From a phage: DNA of 64,000 nucleotides. Below are positions 8,670 to 15,724 of this stretch, piece by piece. The position numbers were made by a program, and so were the translations under genes. Positions within the stretch are counted from its first letter, which is position 1. The number at the start of each line of letters is the position of its first letter. The DNA is taken from the NCBI GenBank assembly GCA_024614665.1, contig GCA_024614665.1_4861.1. The stretch is one strand, 5' to 3'. Below the pieces are notes generated by a model. That model saw only the letters and a program-made list of their open reading frames with translations. It was not told the DNA's origin and made no database searches.

Positions 8670-9263
8670 TTACGCATCGGCCTCAAAGAACGGCTGGTTT
8701 GGTACCACTGCGTATTCGAGCACGAACAGATGTTCTGGGGCATCTTCTGCTCGCCACAGTTTGTGACACGTTGCCAGTTTTTCCAGGATGGTCAGCCAGC
8801 TGAGTTGGCAAAACGCACGATCGCCGAAGAACAGTTTCTGCAGTGCAATTGACACATCCATATACGCCTGTTTGAAGTCGAGCCCTTTATCGTAACCTGC
8901 CGACTGTCGCCAGGTCAGCACGAAACCTGCTTCGGTTTCGTTAATTGCTGGACGTAAACCACAAATCCACATCAGTGCCAGATTAACGTTCCAGTCGAAT
9001 TCGATACCTTCGTCTTCGTCATCACCAAACGCCGCGTTTAACGCGTCGTAGAAACCGTGGTTCTCTGCGAACCATTCGCCGTACTCAACGTAGACCGGTG
9101 CTTCGACAGCCTCCCCATCGACTTCACCGATAGGGCGCTCTACATAGTTCGGGTTGGTTTGAACGTGTTCCGCACCCGCGCGAATCAGTTCGTAGACATC
9201 TTTGGCGGTGATTTGTGCGGCTGTTTTAAGACCTGGATACCAGGGGCGTGTTACGAGTGTCAA
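8670..9263 (-). CDS. hypothetical protein (197 aa)
   Basis: ORF track; TTG start with AGGAG RBS, overlapping the stop of the upstream gene. Confidence 0.5.
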   Translation of the reverse strand: MTLVTRPWYPGLKTAAQITAKDVYELIRAGAEHVQTNPNYVERPIGEVDGEAVEAPVYVEYGEWFAENHGFYDALNAAFGDDEDEGIEFDWNVNLALMWICGLRPAINETEAGFVLTWRQSAGYDKGLDFKQAYMDVSIALQKLFFGDRAFCQLSWLTILEKLATCHKLWRAEDAPEHLFVLEYAVVPNQPFFEADA

Positions 9264-9982
9264 AGCAGTGCTCCTTTCATGATGGTGTTATTTGCCAGTA
9301 ATGTACCGGCCGCAGGTGATATTTTGGTGTACAGCGTATCCCAGATTTTCTGAAGTTCAGCGACGCGTTGGTCGTGGTCTTCCTTCGCAAAAGCAAGCTG
9401 ACGTGTTTCAGCTTTCGGTGGCGTCATTTTCGCACCGTAGAATGCTGCGTCTTTTCGGTAACTGGCCATCCAGCGTTTCCCGACCGGTGATTTCTTTTTA
9501 ATCATCGCAACAGCAGCACTCTCACCGAAGCGGTAGCCTAATGCGATTTCGGCTGTGCTCGGCTTGCGTTTGAGTTGTTTCGTCAGATGATCCTCGATGT
9601 GTTTCATGTAAACAGCAGCAAGCTGTACAGCATATTTCGGTTTATTAAGGTCTGCGTTCTTTGGGATGTTAAGTTGTTTCCCATACAGACGTATCATGGA
9701 GCGTTTAGTGCCTGTCGTCATTTGGACAACACTACTAGCACTGCTCGATTTATTCTTACCCACGTTTTTATTAAAACGGGATTCACGGTAAATAGTGGTC
9801 GCAAGCATCCCGGCGTGTACACCTTGCTTTTGAGATGCGGAGACGATGAGAGGTTTAATCTCATTGAACTGGTCCTGGATAAGGACAAATTCTTTTTGAT
9901 GTTTGTTACTGGTGGACTGGTAAGAAGCGTTGCTGTTGAATGTGGTCACTGCTACCAGAAGAAATAAAATGGTGCGAAACAT
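9260..9982 (-). CDS. secreted lytic transglycosylase (SLT-domain) protein
   Basis: signal peptide MFRTILFLLVAVTTFNSNASYQ; SLT-like YRESRFN...SSSASSVVQM...AVYM; ATG at 9982 with GGAGA RBS (ORF track extends to 10021). Confidence 0.6.
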   Translation of the reverse strand: MFRTILFLLVAVTTFNSNASYQSTSNKHQKEFVLIQDQFNEIKPLIVSASQKQGVHAGMLATTIYRESRFNKNVGKNKSSSASSVVQMTTGTKRSMIRLYGKQLNIPKNADLNKPKYAVQLAAVYMKHIEDHLTKQLKRKPSTAEIALGYRFGESAAVAMIKKKSPVGKRWMASYRKDAAFYGAKMTPPKAETRQLAFAKEDHDQRVAELQKIWDTLYTKISPAAGTLLANNTIMKGALL

Positions 9983-10080
9983 GGATGTTCTCCAAATGGA
10001 TTTATACTTTTCCGTTCCCAATCCGGGAAGACGGCGCGGACGGCATTGTGCTCCTTTGTAATGTGCCCTGATAATAATAT

Positions 10081-10581
10081 CTATTTGAAACTTTTTGGGA
10101 TGATTTTCTCTGCTTCCCTCAGCAGGGTGTCTGGTAAATAGAATCGATAAGTCTGCTCCGTGTGCTGTAGTCGTTTCTGTAAGTGTATAAAGATTTCCAA
10201 TCGCTCATGGTAACGTAACCAACCGTTAGCCATCCCTAGGGGCGGTATCGCAATCCCTCCTTCTAAGTCTTCCCCTAGTCGCGCCAGCGCATCAATGCCG
10301 GACGTGACATAGTAAATCTGCGATTTATAGCGAAAATGGGTTTTAGTAGGAAGGAGTATTACCCCTTCCTCAGGATAACAATAGACCTCACCGATAACGA
10401 TTTGCTCTTTACGACATTTCTGGCGATAGTCGTTATAAAGCGATGGGAAGCGTTCTCGGCACGCCAAGGCAATGCCCCTTCCCATCGCACCAACACAGTT
10501 AACTGTAACGACCTTGAAGCGCTCAGGCGCGTTAAACAGGTCGTGGGAGATAATAGCCTCGTCGATCAGTTCGAGTGACAT
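10081..10581 (-). CDS. macro domain protein, DarG-like (ADP-ribose processing)
   Basis: VVTVNCVGAMGRGIALACRERFP and IAIPPLGMANGWL match macro-domain phosphate-binding and catalytic loops as I recall them from DarG-type antitoxins. Confidence 0.7.
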   Translation of the reverse strand: MSLELIDEAIISHDLFNAPERFKVVTVNCVGAMGRGIALACRERFPSLYNDYRQKCRKEQIVIGEVYCYPEEGVILLPTKTHFRYKSQIYYVTSGIDALARLGEDLEGGIAIPPLGMANGWLRYHERLEIFIHLQKRLQHTEQTYRFYLPDTLLREAEKIIPKSFK

Positions 10582-11203: not shown

Positions 11204-11214
11204 TTTAATGCTCC

Positions 11215-11478
11215 TTAGGGTAAAGTTGCCTCCCAGTCGTAACGGTGAGGCTCAGGCAGCGTACCAAGCGCTGCTTTAATACACGTACTCAGCGGAGTAT
11301 CATCGAACGCAACACGCCCGATAGTACCCACGTTGATGTGTTTTGGATTTACGGGTAAGAACTCCTTCACCCGCTCGTACTCAGCCCAACAGATATCGGT
11401 GTTTAAAGCTGAAAACCCAGGACGGTGAAACATAAATAGCACTCCTCGCGTAAAAATACCCCACTCATAGTGAGGCAT
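11215..11478 (-). CDS. hypothetical protein (87 aa)
   Basis: ORF track; ATG start. Confidence 0.45.
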   Translation of the reverse strand: MPHYEWGIFTRGVLFMFHRPGFSALNTDICWAEYERVKEFLPVNPKHINVGTIGRVAFDDTPLSTCIKAALGTLPEPHRYDWEATLP

Positions 11479-11503
11479 AATCGTAAGGAGTGCTAAAACA
11501 GGA

Positions 11504-11992
11504 CTATGCTACCGCAGTCCTTAAAGGTTCATCTGCTTCCGCAGGAACCTGCTTCGTAAATTCAAGCCATTGTCCGTCTGTAGAGACGGTCTTGCCAAAG
11601 CCGCGAGCGGTAAAGAACGCAATACCAGCTTCCTGGCAAGCGTATATTCCCCCATGCGCACTGGTGAACCGTTCATTCACATCAAGCGCATCAAAAATCT
11701 GCGTCATCGTTTTGCGACGGCGTGCCATTTCGGACACGAACATCGTACGAATCTTCAGAACCCCGGCGATTACGCGATAGAGACAGTAACCAATAGGGGT
11801 GCCCCCTTCCAGAGCAACGCAAGCACGGTTCCCCGCCAACAGTTTCTCCAGAGTGAGGTTCGGAATCTCACCTTTTTCGATATGGAGTATGGTACGTTGG
11901 TGGTTCAGAAATTTATAATGCAGCCCCAACAGCTGTTTATTTTGTGCTTCCGTTAAATCTGAGGATGAGGTAAGAATGACAATTTCGGCCAT
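11504..11992 (-). CDS. hypothetical protein (about 162 aa), weak acetyltransferase-like resemblance
   Basis: ORF track 11504..12025 begins with TTG; ATG (MAEIVIL...) at 11992. Confidence 0.5.
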   Translation of the reverse strand: MAEIVILTSSSDLTEAQNKQLLGLHYKFLNHQRTILHIEKGEIPNLTLEKLLAGNRACVALEGGTPIGYCLYRVIAGVLKIRTMFVSEMARRRKTMTQIFDALDVNERFTSAHGGIYACQEAGIAFFTARGFGKTVSTDGQWLEFTKQVPAEADEPLRTAVA

Positions 11993-12645
11993 GAGCTGAA
12001 TTCCTAAGTGAGCTTTCACCTGCAATGAAAGCGTGTGACGAAGAATTGCGTTTGTGTTTTCTTAAGTTTACCGGTAAAGCTTAGCGGTGTATACCGCCAC
12101 AGATGAAGACCAGTTCTCTATCGGAACTATGTCTTTAATCAGCAACGACGTTTTCAACGTCGTGATGCTGAGGTAACCTTCCGTCGCCACATTCGCTCAT
12201 GGCGCTTCTGATTACCACGCCAGTCTTCCCCGACTGTACGTGAAACTGCAAAATCATCCGGCCCGCAGACTTCCGCGATGTCTGCTAAAAGGTTCTTTGA
12301 AGACCCTATAGCCATCCCCACGCTAGAAAGAACGATACGCCGGGTTGGCTCGGCCGCCCCTAAACCCACGACCACGGGATCAGAGACTGTTTCACTGCTA
12401 CATGTTGTTTCTCCCACTTCGTAATTACCCTCCTGTTAAAACCAACCTTGCGTCAATGCAAGGATTGCGCCTAGGGCGTATGCGCCTGCTCCTAGTATCA
12501 GGCTACAGACGATACACCCAATCCATTTCACTAAAATAGCCACGTTACTACAAACGCTCCGATTGCGCAAACGATAAACGTGATACCAACATCTGTCCAG
12601 GTGGCACCGTCATACGCACCCGTTGCAATCATCGCCGCGTTGACA

Positions 12646-12849
12646 CTATTCACGACTGTCATAAGCCGGGTCCCTTAAACGTGGGGGCTTGCTCCACAGA
12701 TTACCGAAGTAAACCCCTTCTAAGAACACCAAAACAACTAATCCCCAAAAGGCAGGCGTGGCACGAGACAAGAAAATACCCAGCAGCACCGCAGTGTGCA
12801 TTACCACAACTGCCCAAAACTTTAAACGTCGCGGTTTACGTGTTGCCAT
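12646..12849 (-). CDS. small membrane protein
   Basis: MATRKPRRLKFWAVVVMHTAVLLGIFL...; part of a chain of overlapping small hydrophobic ORFs. Confidence 0.3.
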   Translation of the reverse strand: MATRKPRRLKFWAVVVMHTAVLLGIFLSRATPAFWGLVVLVFLEGVYFGNLWSKPPRLRDPAYDSRE

Positions 12850-12936
12850 GGAATGCCCATCCTTTCGTGCGGATAATCCAATCCCAGGCACCACGAATTA
12901 ACCACAGCGCAATACCGGTTAGTACAATACCTTCGA

Positions 12937-13128
12937 TCATGACCGTTCCCCTACATCTCGCCACTCACAACGTGTGTCGAACAGACGTTCTTTAAGAGCA
13001 GCAGCTAAATAAACAACCGCAGCGATAACCACTACGGTTGCACAAAAGGAGAGGTACAGTACCATCACAACAAACTGAAGGAACTGAAAACCCCACCAAG
13101 CCCATAAGCGCCAACCTTTATGATGCAT
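12937..13128 (-). CDS. small membrane protein (63 aa)
   Basis: ATG with GAAGGGG upstream; WRLWAWWGFQFLQFVVMVLYLSFCATVVVIAAVVYLAAAL; overlaps the end of the Rad50-like gene by 11 nt. Confidence 0.35.
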   Translation of the reverse strand: MHHKGWRLWAWWGFQFLQFVVMVLYLSFCATVVVIAAVVYLAAALKERLFDTRCEWRDVGERS

Positions 13129-15628
13129 ATTTGATTATTACCCCTTCGTTATAAACCGGTGGAAGCGTTACACCTTCTGGCTCGACGACACAGTAGGTGG
13201 CTTCGTTAAGTTTAGAATGAACTTCCGCTTCATGCGAAACGACCAGTAATTGAGAAAACTCTCCCGACAACGCCAACGATTTAATGAAGTTAACTAATCG
13301 GTTTTTGTGTTCTTCATCCATGCCTTCAGATGGTTCATCCAATAACAAAGGATAGTTTTGTAAACCAAGCGCTTTATACGCCGTTAAACGAAACATCATG
13401 TTAAAGATAATACGCTGTGCTTTTGAACCTTTCTTCACATCCGGTACCAGTTCTACATGGTCTTTTAATCGCACAGGGAACGTGTAGTCCAGATCCCCGT
13501 CGGTTAGATCGCACGGAATAACCTGCATCGGATATGCCCACACCATTTCGATATACCGATTCATTAAATCCATGATGCGGGTAATCGCAGCGTAGAAGTA
13601 ACGTCTCAGTAAACCTTTTTCAGGAGAAACCGCATTAATAATCAGTCTGGCATGGTGGTGTTCTTTGAGCAACTCAGCTTGCTCTTTTTCCAGTTCCGCT
13701 AAACGTGCAATAGCCCCTTCCATTTGACGAAACCGTTCACGAGCTGAAGTATACGCATCGAGCTTCGCTTCGCGGCGGTTTAACAACTCACGAACTACGA
13801 CGTTGTTAACGGAGATGTTCATTTCCGATACCAGATGTTCGTAGCCCTTTTGGAAACGTTCGATTGCTTCTTTGGTTTGTTGCAGTTGGGTGGTTTCGCG
13901 TTCCAGCTCATTGGCTTGTCTGCGGTATTCTATCAGTCGACGGTTAGCCCCGTCTAGTTGTGAACGGATATGTTCAATTTTCTGGCTCAGAGCACCATCA
14001 ACATTACCTACTGCGGCAACAGCCTCTTGCCATTCCCGTTCCGCTGTTGCAAGCTTCGCTGATTGACGCAGATACATCATGGCCGAATCTAACTCTTCGG
14101 TAAAGGCACGTGCAATGGCACCATATCGATCCCGCGCCGTGGTGAAGATATCCAGCTCCTGTAGTTTACGGAAAAACAAACCGACAACGGGATGATTGGA
14201 ATACGACATGACAATTTCGCGAATCGTACGTAGGCTACGGACGTCCTCTTCAATCTCTTTGCGGTCACGCAAAAGACTATCCATTTCGTCTTTCAGCTGT
14301 TTTTTCCAACCTTCATTATCGTTGATGGCCTTTTCAATTTCAGGTAACGACTTACGAATCCCAGGACGGAAACGGTGGTTACACTGTGGACAATCAACTT
14401 CTGCAGTTTCTAAGAAGTGTTGACGGTCGTGGTATAAACCGTGTAGCACATTCTCACAACGTTGCAACTTTTCAGATAGACCCGCAGAGGTTAAATCCAT
14501 ACCCTGTAAACGCTTCTCTAACGCTCCTAGGCGCTCTGTTGTCTTTAACTGGTCCAGATGCATGGACAACGGTAAATTCCAGTTACAGGCGTCGTTTAAC
14601 GCGTTCTGAATGCTATCCACGTCGATGCGGGTACCTTCAAACAGAGCCGGGAACATCCAGTTCTGTTGGAACGTTGCCAGTTCCTGTTTTAAGCTGTCGA
14701 TTGTTTGTTTTAGACCGGTATGGTTACGCATCAGATACGCTTGACGCGACTCCTCATCCAGTAGCTGTGACAACTCTTTATTGTACATGTTGCATTCAGT
14801 TTCAGCGGAGGCAGCTTGCTCACGCCAGGCAACCACACGACTTTGAAACTCGTTAATCAGTTCGTCAGAAGGCAGAACGCCATAACGTTCCATAATGAGT
14901 TTTACAGCCGGTTGCAACGAAGCAATGCGTTTCCGGATACTGTCAACCGAAACAGCGTTATCTAAACCGGGCCTTGCTTCAATTGTGCGGTTTAATTCTT
15001 GAAGCTCAGCATCGAGTTCTTTCAAACGAACTTCTAAACGTGCACGATCTTCTTCATCGTCAACGACGCGCATTTTTGCTTCGCCGATTTTTCGTCCGGT
15101 GTGTTCGATGGCCCCGCTTAAACTGGAAGCGAGTTTACGCAAACGTCGATAGCAGCCAACAACGTACGTCAGATCAGATTCTGACATTAACGTAAACCAT
15201 TTACGACGAACTTCGGTAGTGGCGTCAGTTAATAAGGTCTCACCATTAATTAACTCTTTGATTTCTTTGGTGATTCCGGTTAATTGCTCCACCATGGAGT
15301 TGTAAACTTTGGCGTTTACCGAGTCCACAATGGGGACGCCTTTGGTGATATTGAAAATACTACAAGACAAAGAAGACCCACGTCGCAGGACTTCAAACTT
15401 AAGACGGTCGTCCCCGACTAACGCGTAGTTAGTGTAAGAACCACCTTCACGGAATTCAGATTTTGCTGGAGCTAAGGGGAGAAAAACAGATAGGAGGCTT
15501 GTTTTACCGCAACCATTCCCACCAAGGATAATGGTAACGGTTGATTTAAGGGTGAAATCAAACGTTTCGATTTCATGTAACCCCATGCCGGTAAATCCTT
15601 TCAAAATGATACGTTCGACCTTGAGCAT
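13118..15628 (-). CDS. Rad50/SbcC-like ATPase with zinc hook
   Basis: Walker A GGNGCGKTS at N-terminus; long coiled-coil middle with CPQC hook; C-terminal LLLDEPSEGMD (Walker B/D-loop) and VVSHE (H-loop); GAAGG RBS. Confidence 0.8.
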   Translation of the reverse strand: MLKVERIILKGFTGMGLHEIETFDFTLKSTVTIILGGNGCGKTSLLSVFLPLAPAKSEFREGGSYTNYALVGDDRLKFEVLRRGSSLSCSIFNITKGVPIVDSVNAKVYNSMVEQLTGITKEIKELINGETLLTDATTEVRRKWFTLMSESDLTYVVGCYRRLRKLASSLSGAIEHTGRKIGEAKMRVVDDEEDRARLEVRLKELDAELQELNRTIEARPGLDNAVSVDSIRKRIASLQPAVKLIMERYGVLPSDELINEFQSRVVAWREQAASAETECNMYNKELSQLLDEESRQAYLMRNHTGLKQTIDSLKQELATFQQNWMFPALFEGTRIDVDSIQNALNDACNWNLPLSMHLDQLKTTERLGALEKRLQGMDLTSAGLSEKLQRCENVLHGLYHDRQHFLETAEVDCPQCNHRFRPGIRKSLPEIEKAINDNEGWKKQLKDEMDSLLRDRKEIEEDVRSLRTIREIVMSYSNHPVVGLFFRKLQELDIFTTARDRYGAIARAFTEELDSAMMYLRQSAKLATAEREWQEAVAAVGNVDGALSQKIEHIRSQLDGANRRLIEYRRQANELERETTQLQQTKEAIERFQKGYEHLVSEMNISVNNVVVRELLNRREAKLDAYTSARERFRQMEGAIARLAELEKEQAELLKEHHHARLIINAVSPEKGLLRRYFYAAITRIMDLMNRYIEMVWAYPMQVIPCDLTDGDLDYTFPVRLKDHVELVPDVKKGSKAQRIIFNMMFRLTAYKALGLQNYPLLLDEPSEGMDEEHKNRLVNFIKSLALSGEFSQLLVVSHEAEVHSKLNEATYCVVEPEGVTLPPVYNEGVIIKYAS

Positions 15629-15679: not shown

Positions 15680-15713
15680 GTAAAAAAGAAGAAATGGAAC
15701 CCCGAAGGGTTCC
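15680..15713 (-). terminator. intrinsic terminator
   Basis: hairpin GGAACCC-CGAA-GGGTTCC with T-run on the minus strand after 15725..16351. Confidence 0.6.
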
Positions 15714-15724
15714 AGAGAGGAGAG

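Follow-up and report, generated by a model that had tools for sequence, protein, structure and literature searches.

Evidence for a conserved chain of small genes, most encoding predicted membrane proteins, behind the SbcC gene of an SPN3US-like phage

We found that the gene for an SbcC/Rad50-like protein is trailed by six small open reading frames on the minus strand (ORFs A to F), with no gap between SbcC and A, and that these six are almost certainly real, conserved coding genes. Five of them (A to E) would encode micro-proteins of the membrane; F would encode a soluble protein. All positions refer to the window, the 64,000-nucleotide stretch of phage DNA that we analyzed. The genes are listed below, beginning with the head of the unit.

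13118..15628, minus strand: SbcC/Rad50-like gene (836 aa; SPN3US_0186/gp186), head of the unit
12937..13128, minus strand: ORF A, 63 aa (SPN3US_0187, gp187); one long hydrophobic segment, KD19 2.70
12836..12940, minus strand: ORF B, 34 aa, ATG at 12940; not annotated in SPN3US
12646..12849, minus strand: ORF C, 67 aa (SPN3US_0188); two hydrophobic segments, KD19 2.03
12531..12662, minus strand: ORF D, 43 aa (SPN3US_0189); C-terminal hydrophobic helix ending in WLF, KD19 2.39
12436..12543, minus strand: ORF E, 35 aa; fills the 113-nt interval between D and F
12154..12417, minus strand: ORF F, 87 aa; GTG start 11 nt after AGGAGG

Judged by its sequence, the source phage is an SPN3US-like jumbo phage of the genus Seoulvirus, like its 240-kb relatives. 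Over positions 11500..13700, the window shares 99.0% identity with Salmonella phage SaP7 and 94-96% with SPN3US, the SPFM phages, EC001 and others, and the SbcC-like protein is 99.8% identical to the SPN3US 'putative SMC domain-containing protein'. Two Seoulvirus lineages, SPAsTU/STsAS and Erwinia phage pEa_SNUABM_29 (pEa29), have only ~70% nucleotide identity to the window here. For more distant comparisons, we collected 17 IMG/VR loci by means of the SbcC protein (43-63% identity), plus SPN3US itself.

Genes A to E form an overlapping stop/start chain. A and SbcC overlap by 11 nt, the ATG of A being within the SbcC gene, A and B share an ATGA, and the overlaps at B/C, C/D and D/E are 14, 17 and 13 nt, respectively. 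Each gene of this chain has a purine-rich ribosome site. E and F do not overlap and are separated by an 18-nt spacer that contains AGGAGG. The arrangement of A to E is classic for translational coupling, which we infer here, and A to F are presumably co-transcribed with SbcC. A first-pass annotation of this DNA had placed five minus-strand ORFs (A, B, C, D and F) after a Rad50-like gene, and all five are found at the coordinates listed above. It had also described them as following one another with overlapping stop/start junctions. This is correct for SbcC/A, A/B, B/C and C/D, but D and F are not adjacent: a sixth ORF, E (12436..12543), had been missed between them.

A, B, D and E are predicted, from Kyte-Doolittle hydropathy (KD19, the maximum 19-residue score), to be single-helix proteins and C to be a two-helix hairpin, and all five would be expected to insert into the host cytoplasmic membrane. 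ORF A has a conserved FC within its helix and a CEWR motif at the C-terminus. In ORF B, a short hydrophobic core precedes an amphipathic, Trp-rich KGWAF tail; the hydropathy of B is borderline in the source phage (KD19 1.55, KD15 2.09) and reaches KD19 2.27 among its homologues. ORF C has a basic N-terminus, two hydrophobic helices and a conserved PP(L/R)LRDPAYD(N/S)RE tail, its charged C-terminal tail reading KPPRLRDPAYDSRE. In ORF E, a single hydrophobic segment (KD19 2.2-2.3) extends across most of the protein, and the C-terminus, (A/G/C)LTQGWF, is near-invariant. The start codon of E is GTG in the source phage and SaP7, and ATG at the same position in SPN3US, EC001, SPAsTU and pEa29. D and E both end in W-x-F and have a complementary distribution; a common origin of the two was considered and rejected (hhalign probability 0.6%).

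ORF F is different. It is not hydrophobic (maximum KD19 1.03) and has 13 K+R and 11 D+E residues, distributed over a variable acidic N-terminal half, a conserved EDWRGxQxRHER motif (EDWRGNQKRHERMWRRKVTSASRR) and a basic C-terminal helix. We infer that F is soluble and that its tail is basic and helical. An AlphaFold (AF2) model of F, built from a 5-sequence alignment, was poor (mean pLDDT 57) except for the long C-terminal basic helix. The earlier description of the ORFs as mostly single transmembrane helices thus fits A and D, and B as a borderline case, but not C, with its two hydrophobic segments, or F. Its statement that most of them fall below a 60-aa cut-off was wrong: only B and D of its five do so, joined by E when all six are counted.

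Hydrophobic reading frames tile this region far more densely than expected by chance. Same-strand ORFs of at least 30 codons with a strongly hydrophobic 17-mer cover 98% of a 706-nt stretch. Among 1000 dinucleotide shuffles, coverage averaged 14% with a maximum of 87%, and the observed coverage or number of ORFs was reached in none (0/1000).

The frames are also conserved. In SPAsTU, all six are open and alignable; in pEa29, five of the six are, C being absent. The first-pass annotation had proposed conservation of the small reading frames in related phages as a check, and frames, starts and Shine-Dalgarno (SD) sites are indeed conserved at 70% nucleotide identity and beyond. Overlap lengths at the junctions, start codons and purine-rich SD-like sites recur across lineages. 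We compared the six window proteins, using jackhmmer, with all stop-to-stop frames downstream of SbcC in 20 syntenic sources. Matches were found for B in 18/20, F in 14/20, E in 12/20, A in 10/20, D in 8/20 and C in 5/20, so that B is, by this sequence comparison, the most widely conserved member of the chain. Sources with matches span 49% to 100% SbcC identity, and the matches always occur in the same order, between SbcC and the gene for a GNAT acetyltransferase. L018 and L020 (SbcC identity 43-44%) had no match to A to F by jackhmmer. ORF C is kept in SPAsTU, L010 and L011, and is missing from pEa29, as a clean deletion, and from L012-14. F co-occurs with E.

Patterns of substitution indicate that the named frames are under purifying selection. 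By the Nei-Gojobori method, pN was lower than pS throughout (for A, pN was 0.29-0.35 and pS was 0.64-0.66). In comparisons with SPAsTU and pEa29, dN/dS was 0.24-0.33 for A, 0.15-0.17 for B and 0.26-0.50 for F. It was ~0.3 for C (relative to SPAsTU, L010 and L011) and 0.17 for D (relative to SPAsTU only, pS being saturated relative to pEa29). Among eight close genomes, the variable sites fell at codon position 3 in 15/20 cases for A, 7/9 for B, 13/20 for C and 13/21 for D. Differences between F and its pEa29 counterpart were distributed 25/19/40 over the three codon positions, and indels in E and F were multiples of three only.

These results leave very little room for the view that the ORFs are open by chance, or are fragments of a single, larger gene for a membrane protein, and are not separately translated. 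The ORFs are indeed very short, the reference genome lacks annotations for several of them, and other frames are locally open (e.g., the G frame, gp76, annotated over part of F in SPN3US), but each frame keeps its own start and SD site across lineages down to ~50% SbcC identity, the frames are never fused in any relative, and the selection, codon-position bias and tiling described above, together with the substitutions in the F overlap described below, make this view extremely improbable; we regard it as essentially excluded. The first-pass view of the region as a set of genuine, conserved genes for very small membrane proteins, several of them under the usual ORF cut-offs, is upheld, with the exception of F.

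Some of these genes have been annotated before. SPN3US_0187-0189, listed as hypothetical proteins, correspond to A, C and D. The other three have been annotated in certain relatives: B in SPFM4 and SPAsTU, E in EC001 (P0007 is the 35-aa EC001 protein) and SPAsTU, and F in Erwinia phages, where its motif is recognizable. F is unannotated in most SPN3US-like records.

The end of F overlaps other open frames and a group of RNA hairpins, and a further hairpin lies at the end of E. These features are listed below.

12443..12467, minus strand: terminator-like hairpin formed by the final codons of E, with TTGGTTTTAA after it (tentative)
12140..12170, minus strand: hairpin HP1
12108..12133, minus strand: hairpin HP2
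12083..12098, minus strand: hairpin HP3 (HP1 to HP3 occupy the end of F and the interval that precedes the acetyltransferase gene)
12068..12190, minus strand: the SPN3US_0190/gp76 call, 40 aa (G frame), out of frame with F, whose end it covers along with the hairpins
12135..12257: H frame, a third open frame across the F/gp76 overlap

In the F/gp76 overlap, differences from relatives fall at position 2 of H-frame codons, equivalent to position 3 in the F frame (13/18 differences in pEa29 and 15/26 in SPAsTU). The gp76 frame has no such codon-position bias in its overlap with F. Because of this F-frame position-3 bias, and because the F motif is recognizable in Erwinia phages, we take F as the real gene; SPN3US_0190/gp76 is probably a false call over conserved RNA hairpins.

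The hairpins themselves appear to be maintained. The HP1-HP3 region (12083..12170) has a fold z-score of -4.87, and 14/26 consensus pairs have compensatory changes in an alignment of eight sequences. The HP1 stem consists of codons for ..RRFQRR.., and SPAsTU has synonymous changes on both arms that keep the pairing. In the window, the loop of HP1 is GAA, the reverse complement of the TTC found in SaP7 and all other aligned relatives. The resulting TGA removes the last five residues of F. That is, F is truncated by 5 aa in the source phage through inversion of a hairpin loop. For the hairpin at the end of E, 79% of cells were paired in distant relatives, and the covariation score was 0.262 (0.166 in shuffles). 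We call this hairpin a terminator-like element only tentatively because the ..LTQGWF peptide that it encodes is conserved in its own right. An Rfam scan of positions 11900..13300 gave no match at E <= 1.

The likely boundaries of the unit comprising SbcC and A to F are hairpins. At the 5' end, between the upstream gene and the SbcC start, is an intrinsic-terminator-like hairpin:

15695..15714, minus strand: TGGAACCC-TTCG-GGGTTCCA, followed by a T-run

HP1 to HP3, after F, are the likely 3' boundary. SPN3US-type phages use their own RNA polymerases. A scan for sigma-70 promoters found no excess (5 found, 6.3 expected). A promoter-like motif, ACAC-N11-TTCGT, present upstream of the acetyltransferase gene in several relatives, was dropped: the window has 18 matches and 22 were expected.

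Genes downstream of the chain encode a GNAT acetyltransferase, a macro domain protein and a secreted SLT transglycosylase. These look like host-interaction genes. A gene neighboring the chain has an EF-Tu-like motif.

Searches of protein families gave names and no functions. A to F had no match in Pfam or NCBIfam and matched only PHROG families to which no function is assigned. A, B, C, D and F are direct members of such families (E 3.7e-9 to 3.1e-37): A of phrog_16515 (E 5.6e-29), B of phrog_13448 (E 3.7e-9), C of phrog_18173 (E 3.1e-37), D of phrog_29196 (E 7.9e-28) and F of phrog_15402 (E 8.9e-12). These assignments explain nothing about what the proteins do. E had a weak match to phrog_8626 (E 0.021). 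The positions of A to F are those of the PHROG family members in SPN3US-type phages. A word-indexed search of large protein databases returned only near-identical proteins for E and F, and a full phmmer search with F against 1.84 billion representatives returned its own clade only, plus spurious matches in long proteins.

The chain is confined to part of a larger group of phages. SPN3US-type phages are grouped with the nucleus-forming phiKZ-like phages, and a protein shell is believed to keep their DNA apart from the membrane. Because phiKZ, Goslar and Ea35-70 have the same SbcC and no small-ORF chain, the chain is not a core chimallivirus function. In CR5-type and Machina/ChrisDB-type phages, the slot after SbcC is occupied by small, hydrophobic, non-homologous ORFs. 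A was tested for homology to A', its positional analogue in L015-L023 (the WPxPGRV family), and this was rejected (probability 5.7%).

What might the membrane proteins do? T4 Imm and Sp are small inner-membrane proteins for superinfection immunity or exclusion, and T4 imm lies between genes 42 and 43. The chain likewise consists of small predicted inner-membrane proteins among DNA-metabolism genes. C is comparable to Imm (83 aa, two helices) in size and, by hydropathy only, in its two-helix layout; in primary sequence, profiles of A to F had no similarity to Imm (<= 1.2 bits). The first-pass annotation had read the region as one of host takeover or exclusion. That reading is plausible by analogy, as T4 imm is likewise found among DNA-replication genes, but it is not supported by what we found: the six genes are the tail of a unit whose head is the SbcC-like gene, and they match neither a family of known function nor Imm.

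The interpretation that we rank first, as a leading candidate rather than a probable answer, is that A to E are Imm/Sp-type envelope modifiers, i.e., non-virion accessory proteins. They would be made together with SbcC, before the late phase, a timing suggested only by the linkage to SbcC, and would act on the inner membrane of the infected cell, for example by blocking entry of further phage DNA or by altering membrane physiology. They would not be components of DNA repair. We favor this interpretation because the slot looks like one for accessory genes, in which non-homologous small membrane proteins replace one another, because the linkage to SbcC suggests pre-late expression, and because the context of T4 imm is comparable. 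The tight coupling of A to SbcC is, however, explained equally well by the alternative that we rank second.

In that alternative, which we consider unlikely, A, and possibly B to E, would partner the SbcCD nuclease at the membrane or anchor it there, and the coupling would set the stoichiometry with SbcC. In the literature that we found, A is the only one of the six proteins discussed, and it is discussed in this possible role: gp187 was described as a 63-aa protein with a predicted transmembrane domain, encoded just downstream of SbcC, and was compared to T4 gp47.1, a 46-aa membrane protein proposed to anchor gp46/gp47 [Thomas et al. 2016, PMC5105663]. In the T4 region that we compared, 47.1 is hydrophobic (KD19 1.97) and overlaps gene 47. 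A is also tiny, has one hydrophobic helix, and overlaps a gene for an SbcCD-type nuclease, its start lying within the end of SbcC. Moreover, all SPN3US-, PhiEaH2-, Machina- and CR5-type loci that we examined have a small hydrophobic ORF directly after SbcC, including those in which this ORF is non-homologous.

Several observations weigh against a role of A as a nuclease partner. Profiles of A to F had no similarity to T4 47.1, 46.1, 46.2 or 45.2 (<= 2.2 bits). The small T4 gene is next to SbcD (gene 47), on the upstream side, whereas A is downstream of SbcC, and A belongs to a chain of genes for five membrane micro-proteins. The SbcC genes of phiKZ, Goslar and Ea35-70 are not followed by such an ORF, and accessory-gene hotspots, too, typically show replacement by non-homologous genes at a single position. 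Membrane anchoring would also be at odds with a nucleus-forming lifestyle, in which the DNA is thought to be shelled off from the membrane. The anchor role in T4 is itself only a proposal. Finally, the SbcD gene (gp27) of SPN3US is located elsewhere in the genome [PMC5105663].

Ranked third, and quite improbable in our estimate, is a role in lysis. Class II holins and pinholins are about 65-70 aa, with two transmembrane domains and a charged C-terminus. C has this architecture (67 aa, with two helices between a basic N-terminus and a charged C-terminal tail), and some of the chain proteins, especially C, B and E, might be a holin, a pinholin or an antiholin-like regulator working with the SLT transglycosylase. 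The gene for this SLT-domain protein, which has an N-terminal signal-like sequence, is at 9260..10021, on the same strand and 2.6 kb downstream, and the literature that we searched reports no holin for the SPN3US phage group. However, none of A to F matched a holin family at E <= 1 in Pfam, PHROGs or NCBIfam. C is not found throughout the clade, and its absence from pEa29 and L012-14 would be impossible for a sole holin. Nor does C adjoin the gene for a muralytic enzyme, as five unrelated genes lie between the chain and the SLT gene. The pre-late expression suggested by the SbcC linkage also speaks against lysis.

A more elaborate scheme is less probable still, and we mention it as speculation. 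A to E could be subunits of one hetero-oligomeric inner-membrane complex, with ratios fixed by translational coupling to SbcC, that would link phage DNA processing, or the site of DNA entry, to the host membrane. In the same scheme, the 3'-terminal codons of E (..LTQGWF) and of F (..RRFQRRC) would double as RNA hairpins controlling both read-through and termination of the operon by phage RNA polymerase.

In itself, the chain is ordinary: these are uncharacterized small phage genes of a known kind, and their identification is of modest annotation value. A 60-aa cut-off routinely discards small membrane proteins, and the conserved genes B, E and F lack annotation in the SPN3US reference and in most related genomes. 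The chain raises the question of whether the host membrane still serves DNA transactions in nucleus-forming phages, or whether such proteins are accessories for exclusion or lysis; current views would stand with either functional outcome. Giant-phage genetics has a model in SPN3US, whose SbcC gene (gp186) was shown to be essential by work with amber mutants [PMC5105663]; the set of micro-proteins behind SbcC is tractable.

We found that, judged by comparison with relatives, the window carries a hairpin-loop inversion at the end of F, the last of the six small genes in the chain (12154..12417). The loop of HP1, which spans 12140..12170 and is the first of three conserved hairpins at and after the F stop, is GAA in the window (12153..12155) and TTC in SaP7 and all other aligned relatives, and GAA is the reverse complement of TTC. 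The inversion creates a TGA stop, and the end of F changes from ..SRRFQRRC to ..SRR. A previously called gene lies across the same region:

12068..12190, (-), SPN3US_0190 (RefSeq gp76, 40 aa, phrog_29795), over the end of F and the three hairpins

The hairpins beneath this frame are conserved and covarying, and we found no coding substitution pattern in the gp76 frame. SPN3US_0190 is probably a false gene call.

Two further hairpins were found, one within gene E and one downstream of the chain:

12443..12467, (-), hairpin in the C-terminal codons of E, followed by TTGGTTTTAA
11993..12060, (-), acetyltransferase gene leader, with a conserved hairpin in it

The E hairpin may serve as an attenuator or terminator embedded in coding sequence. 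In distant relatives its pairing is mostly kept, partly through a coupled I to V change (ATC to GTC) and GGT to GGC. Alternatively, conservation of the peptide encoded there, a near-invariant C-terminus (..ILALTQGWF), may produce the hairpin as a side effect. The leader hairpin (CTTTCA-TTGCAGG-TGAAAG in the window) has the same shape but different sequences in SPAsTU and PhiEaH2-type loci, and is followed by a conserved ribosome-site block, ACTYAGGAA.

Gene C of the chain has a variant end in EC001 and Lh1B (L003 and L009). Its C5 run near the end of the gene (window 12683..12687, (-)) contains one additional C in these phages, the conserved PPRLRDPAYDSRE tail is replaced, and C terminates in a TGA that shares bases with the start of D (ATGA). 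Either this insertion is genuine variation or it reflects a sequencing error in the homopolymer; the Lh1B sequence also contains Ns.

Relatives also differ in gene content. In one Erwinia-type lineage, an inserted gene separates the first small membrane ORF from B, with additional small hydrophobic ORFs after it:

L015, L016 and L019, 6679..7065, 128-aa gene with a HEAVH motif (phrog_1365, unknown function)

HEAVH resembles an HExxH metalloprotease motif. SPN3US has gp73 (172 aa; L001 2210..2728) between gp72 and the EF-Tu-like gene described below; the window (~11204..11214) and SaP7 both lack it.

Downstream of the chain are:

9260..10021, (-), SLT lytic transglycosylase, with a signal-like sequence at its N-terminus, MFRTILFLLVAVTTFNSNA
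10081..10581, (-), macro-domain protein
11504..11992, (-), GNAT acetyltransferase
11215..11478, (-), small gene with an EF-Tu-like stretch (phrog_28329/phrog_12626, families of unknown function); counterpart, L010 8148..8477

The first three of these genes give the region the look of a host-interaction neighbourhood. The EF-Tu-like gene is positioned two genes downstream of the chain. A stretch within it reproduces the G1 region at the N-terminus of bacterial EF-Tu: HVNVGTIGHVDHSRSAVSA in PhiEaH2-type homologues and HVNVGTIGHVDHGKTTLTA in EF-Tu are identical at 14/26 positions (E 5e-8, pairwise). The window version, HINVGTIGRVAFDD, is more degenerate. The phage stretch lacks the P-loop GKT, and the protein is therefore not a GTPase. 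The protein could act as a mimic or decoy of EF-Tu.
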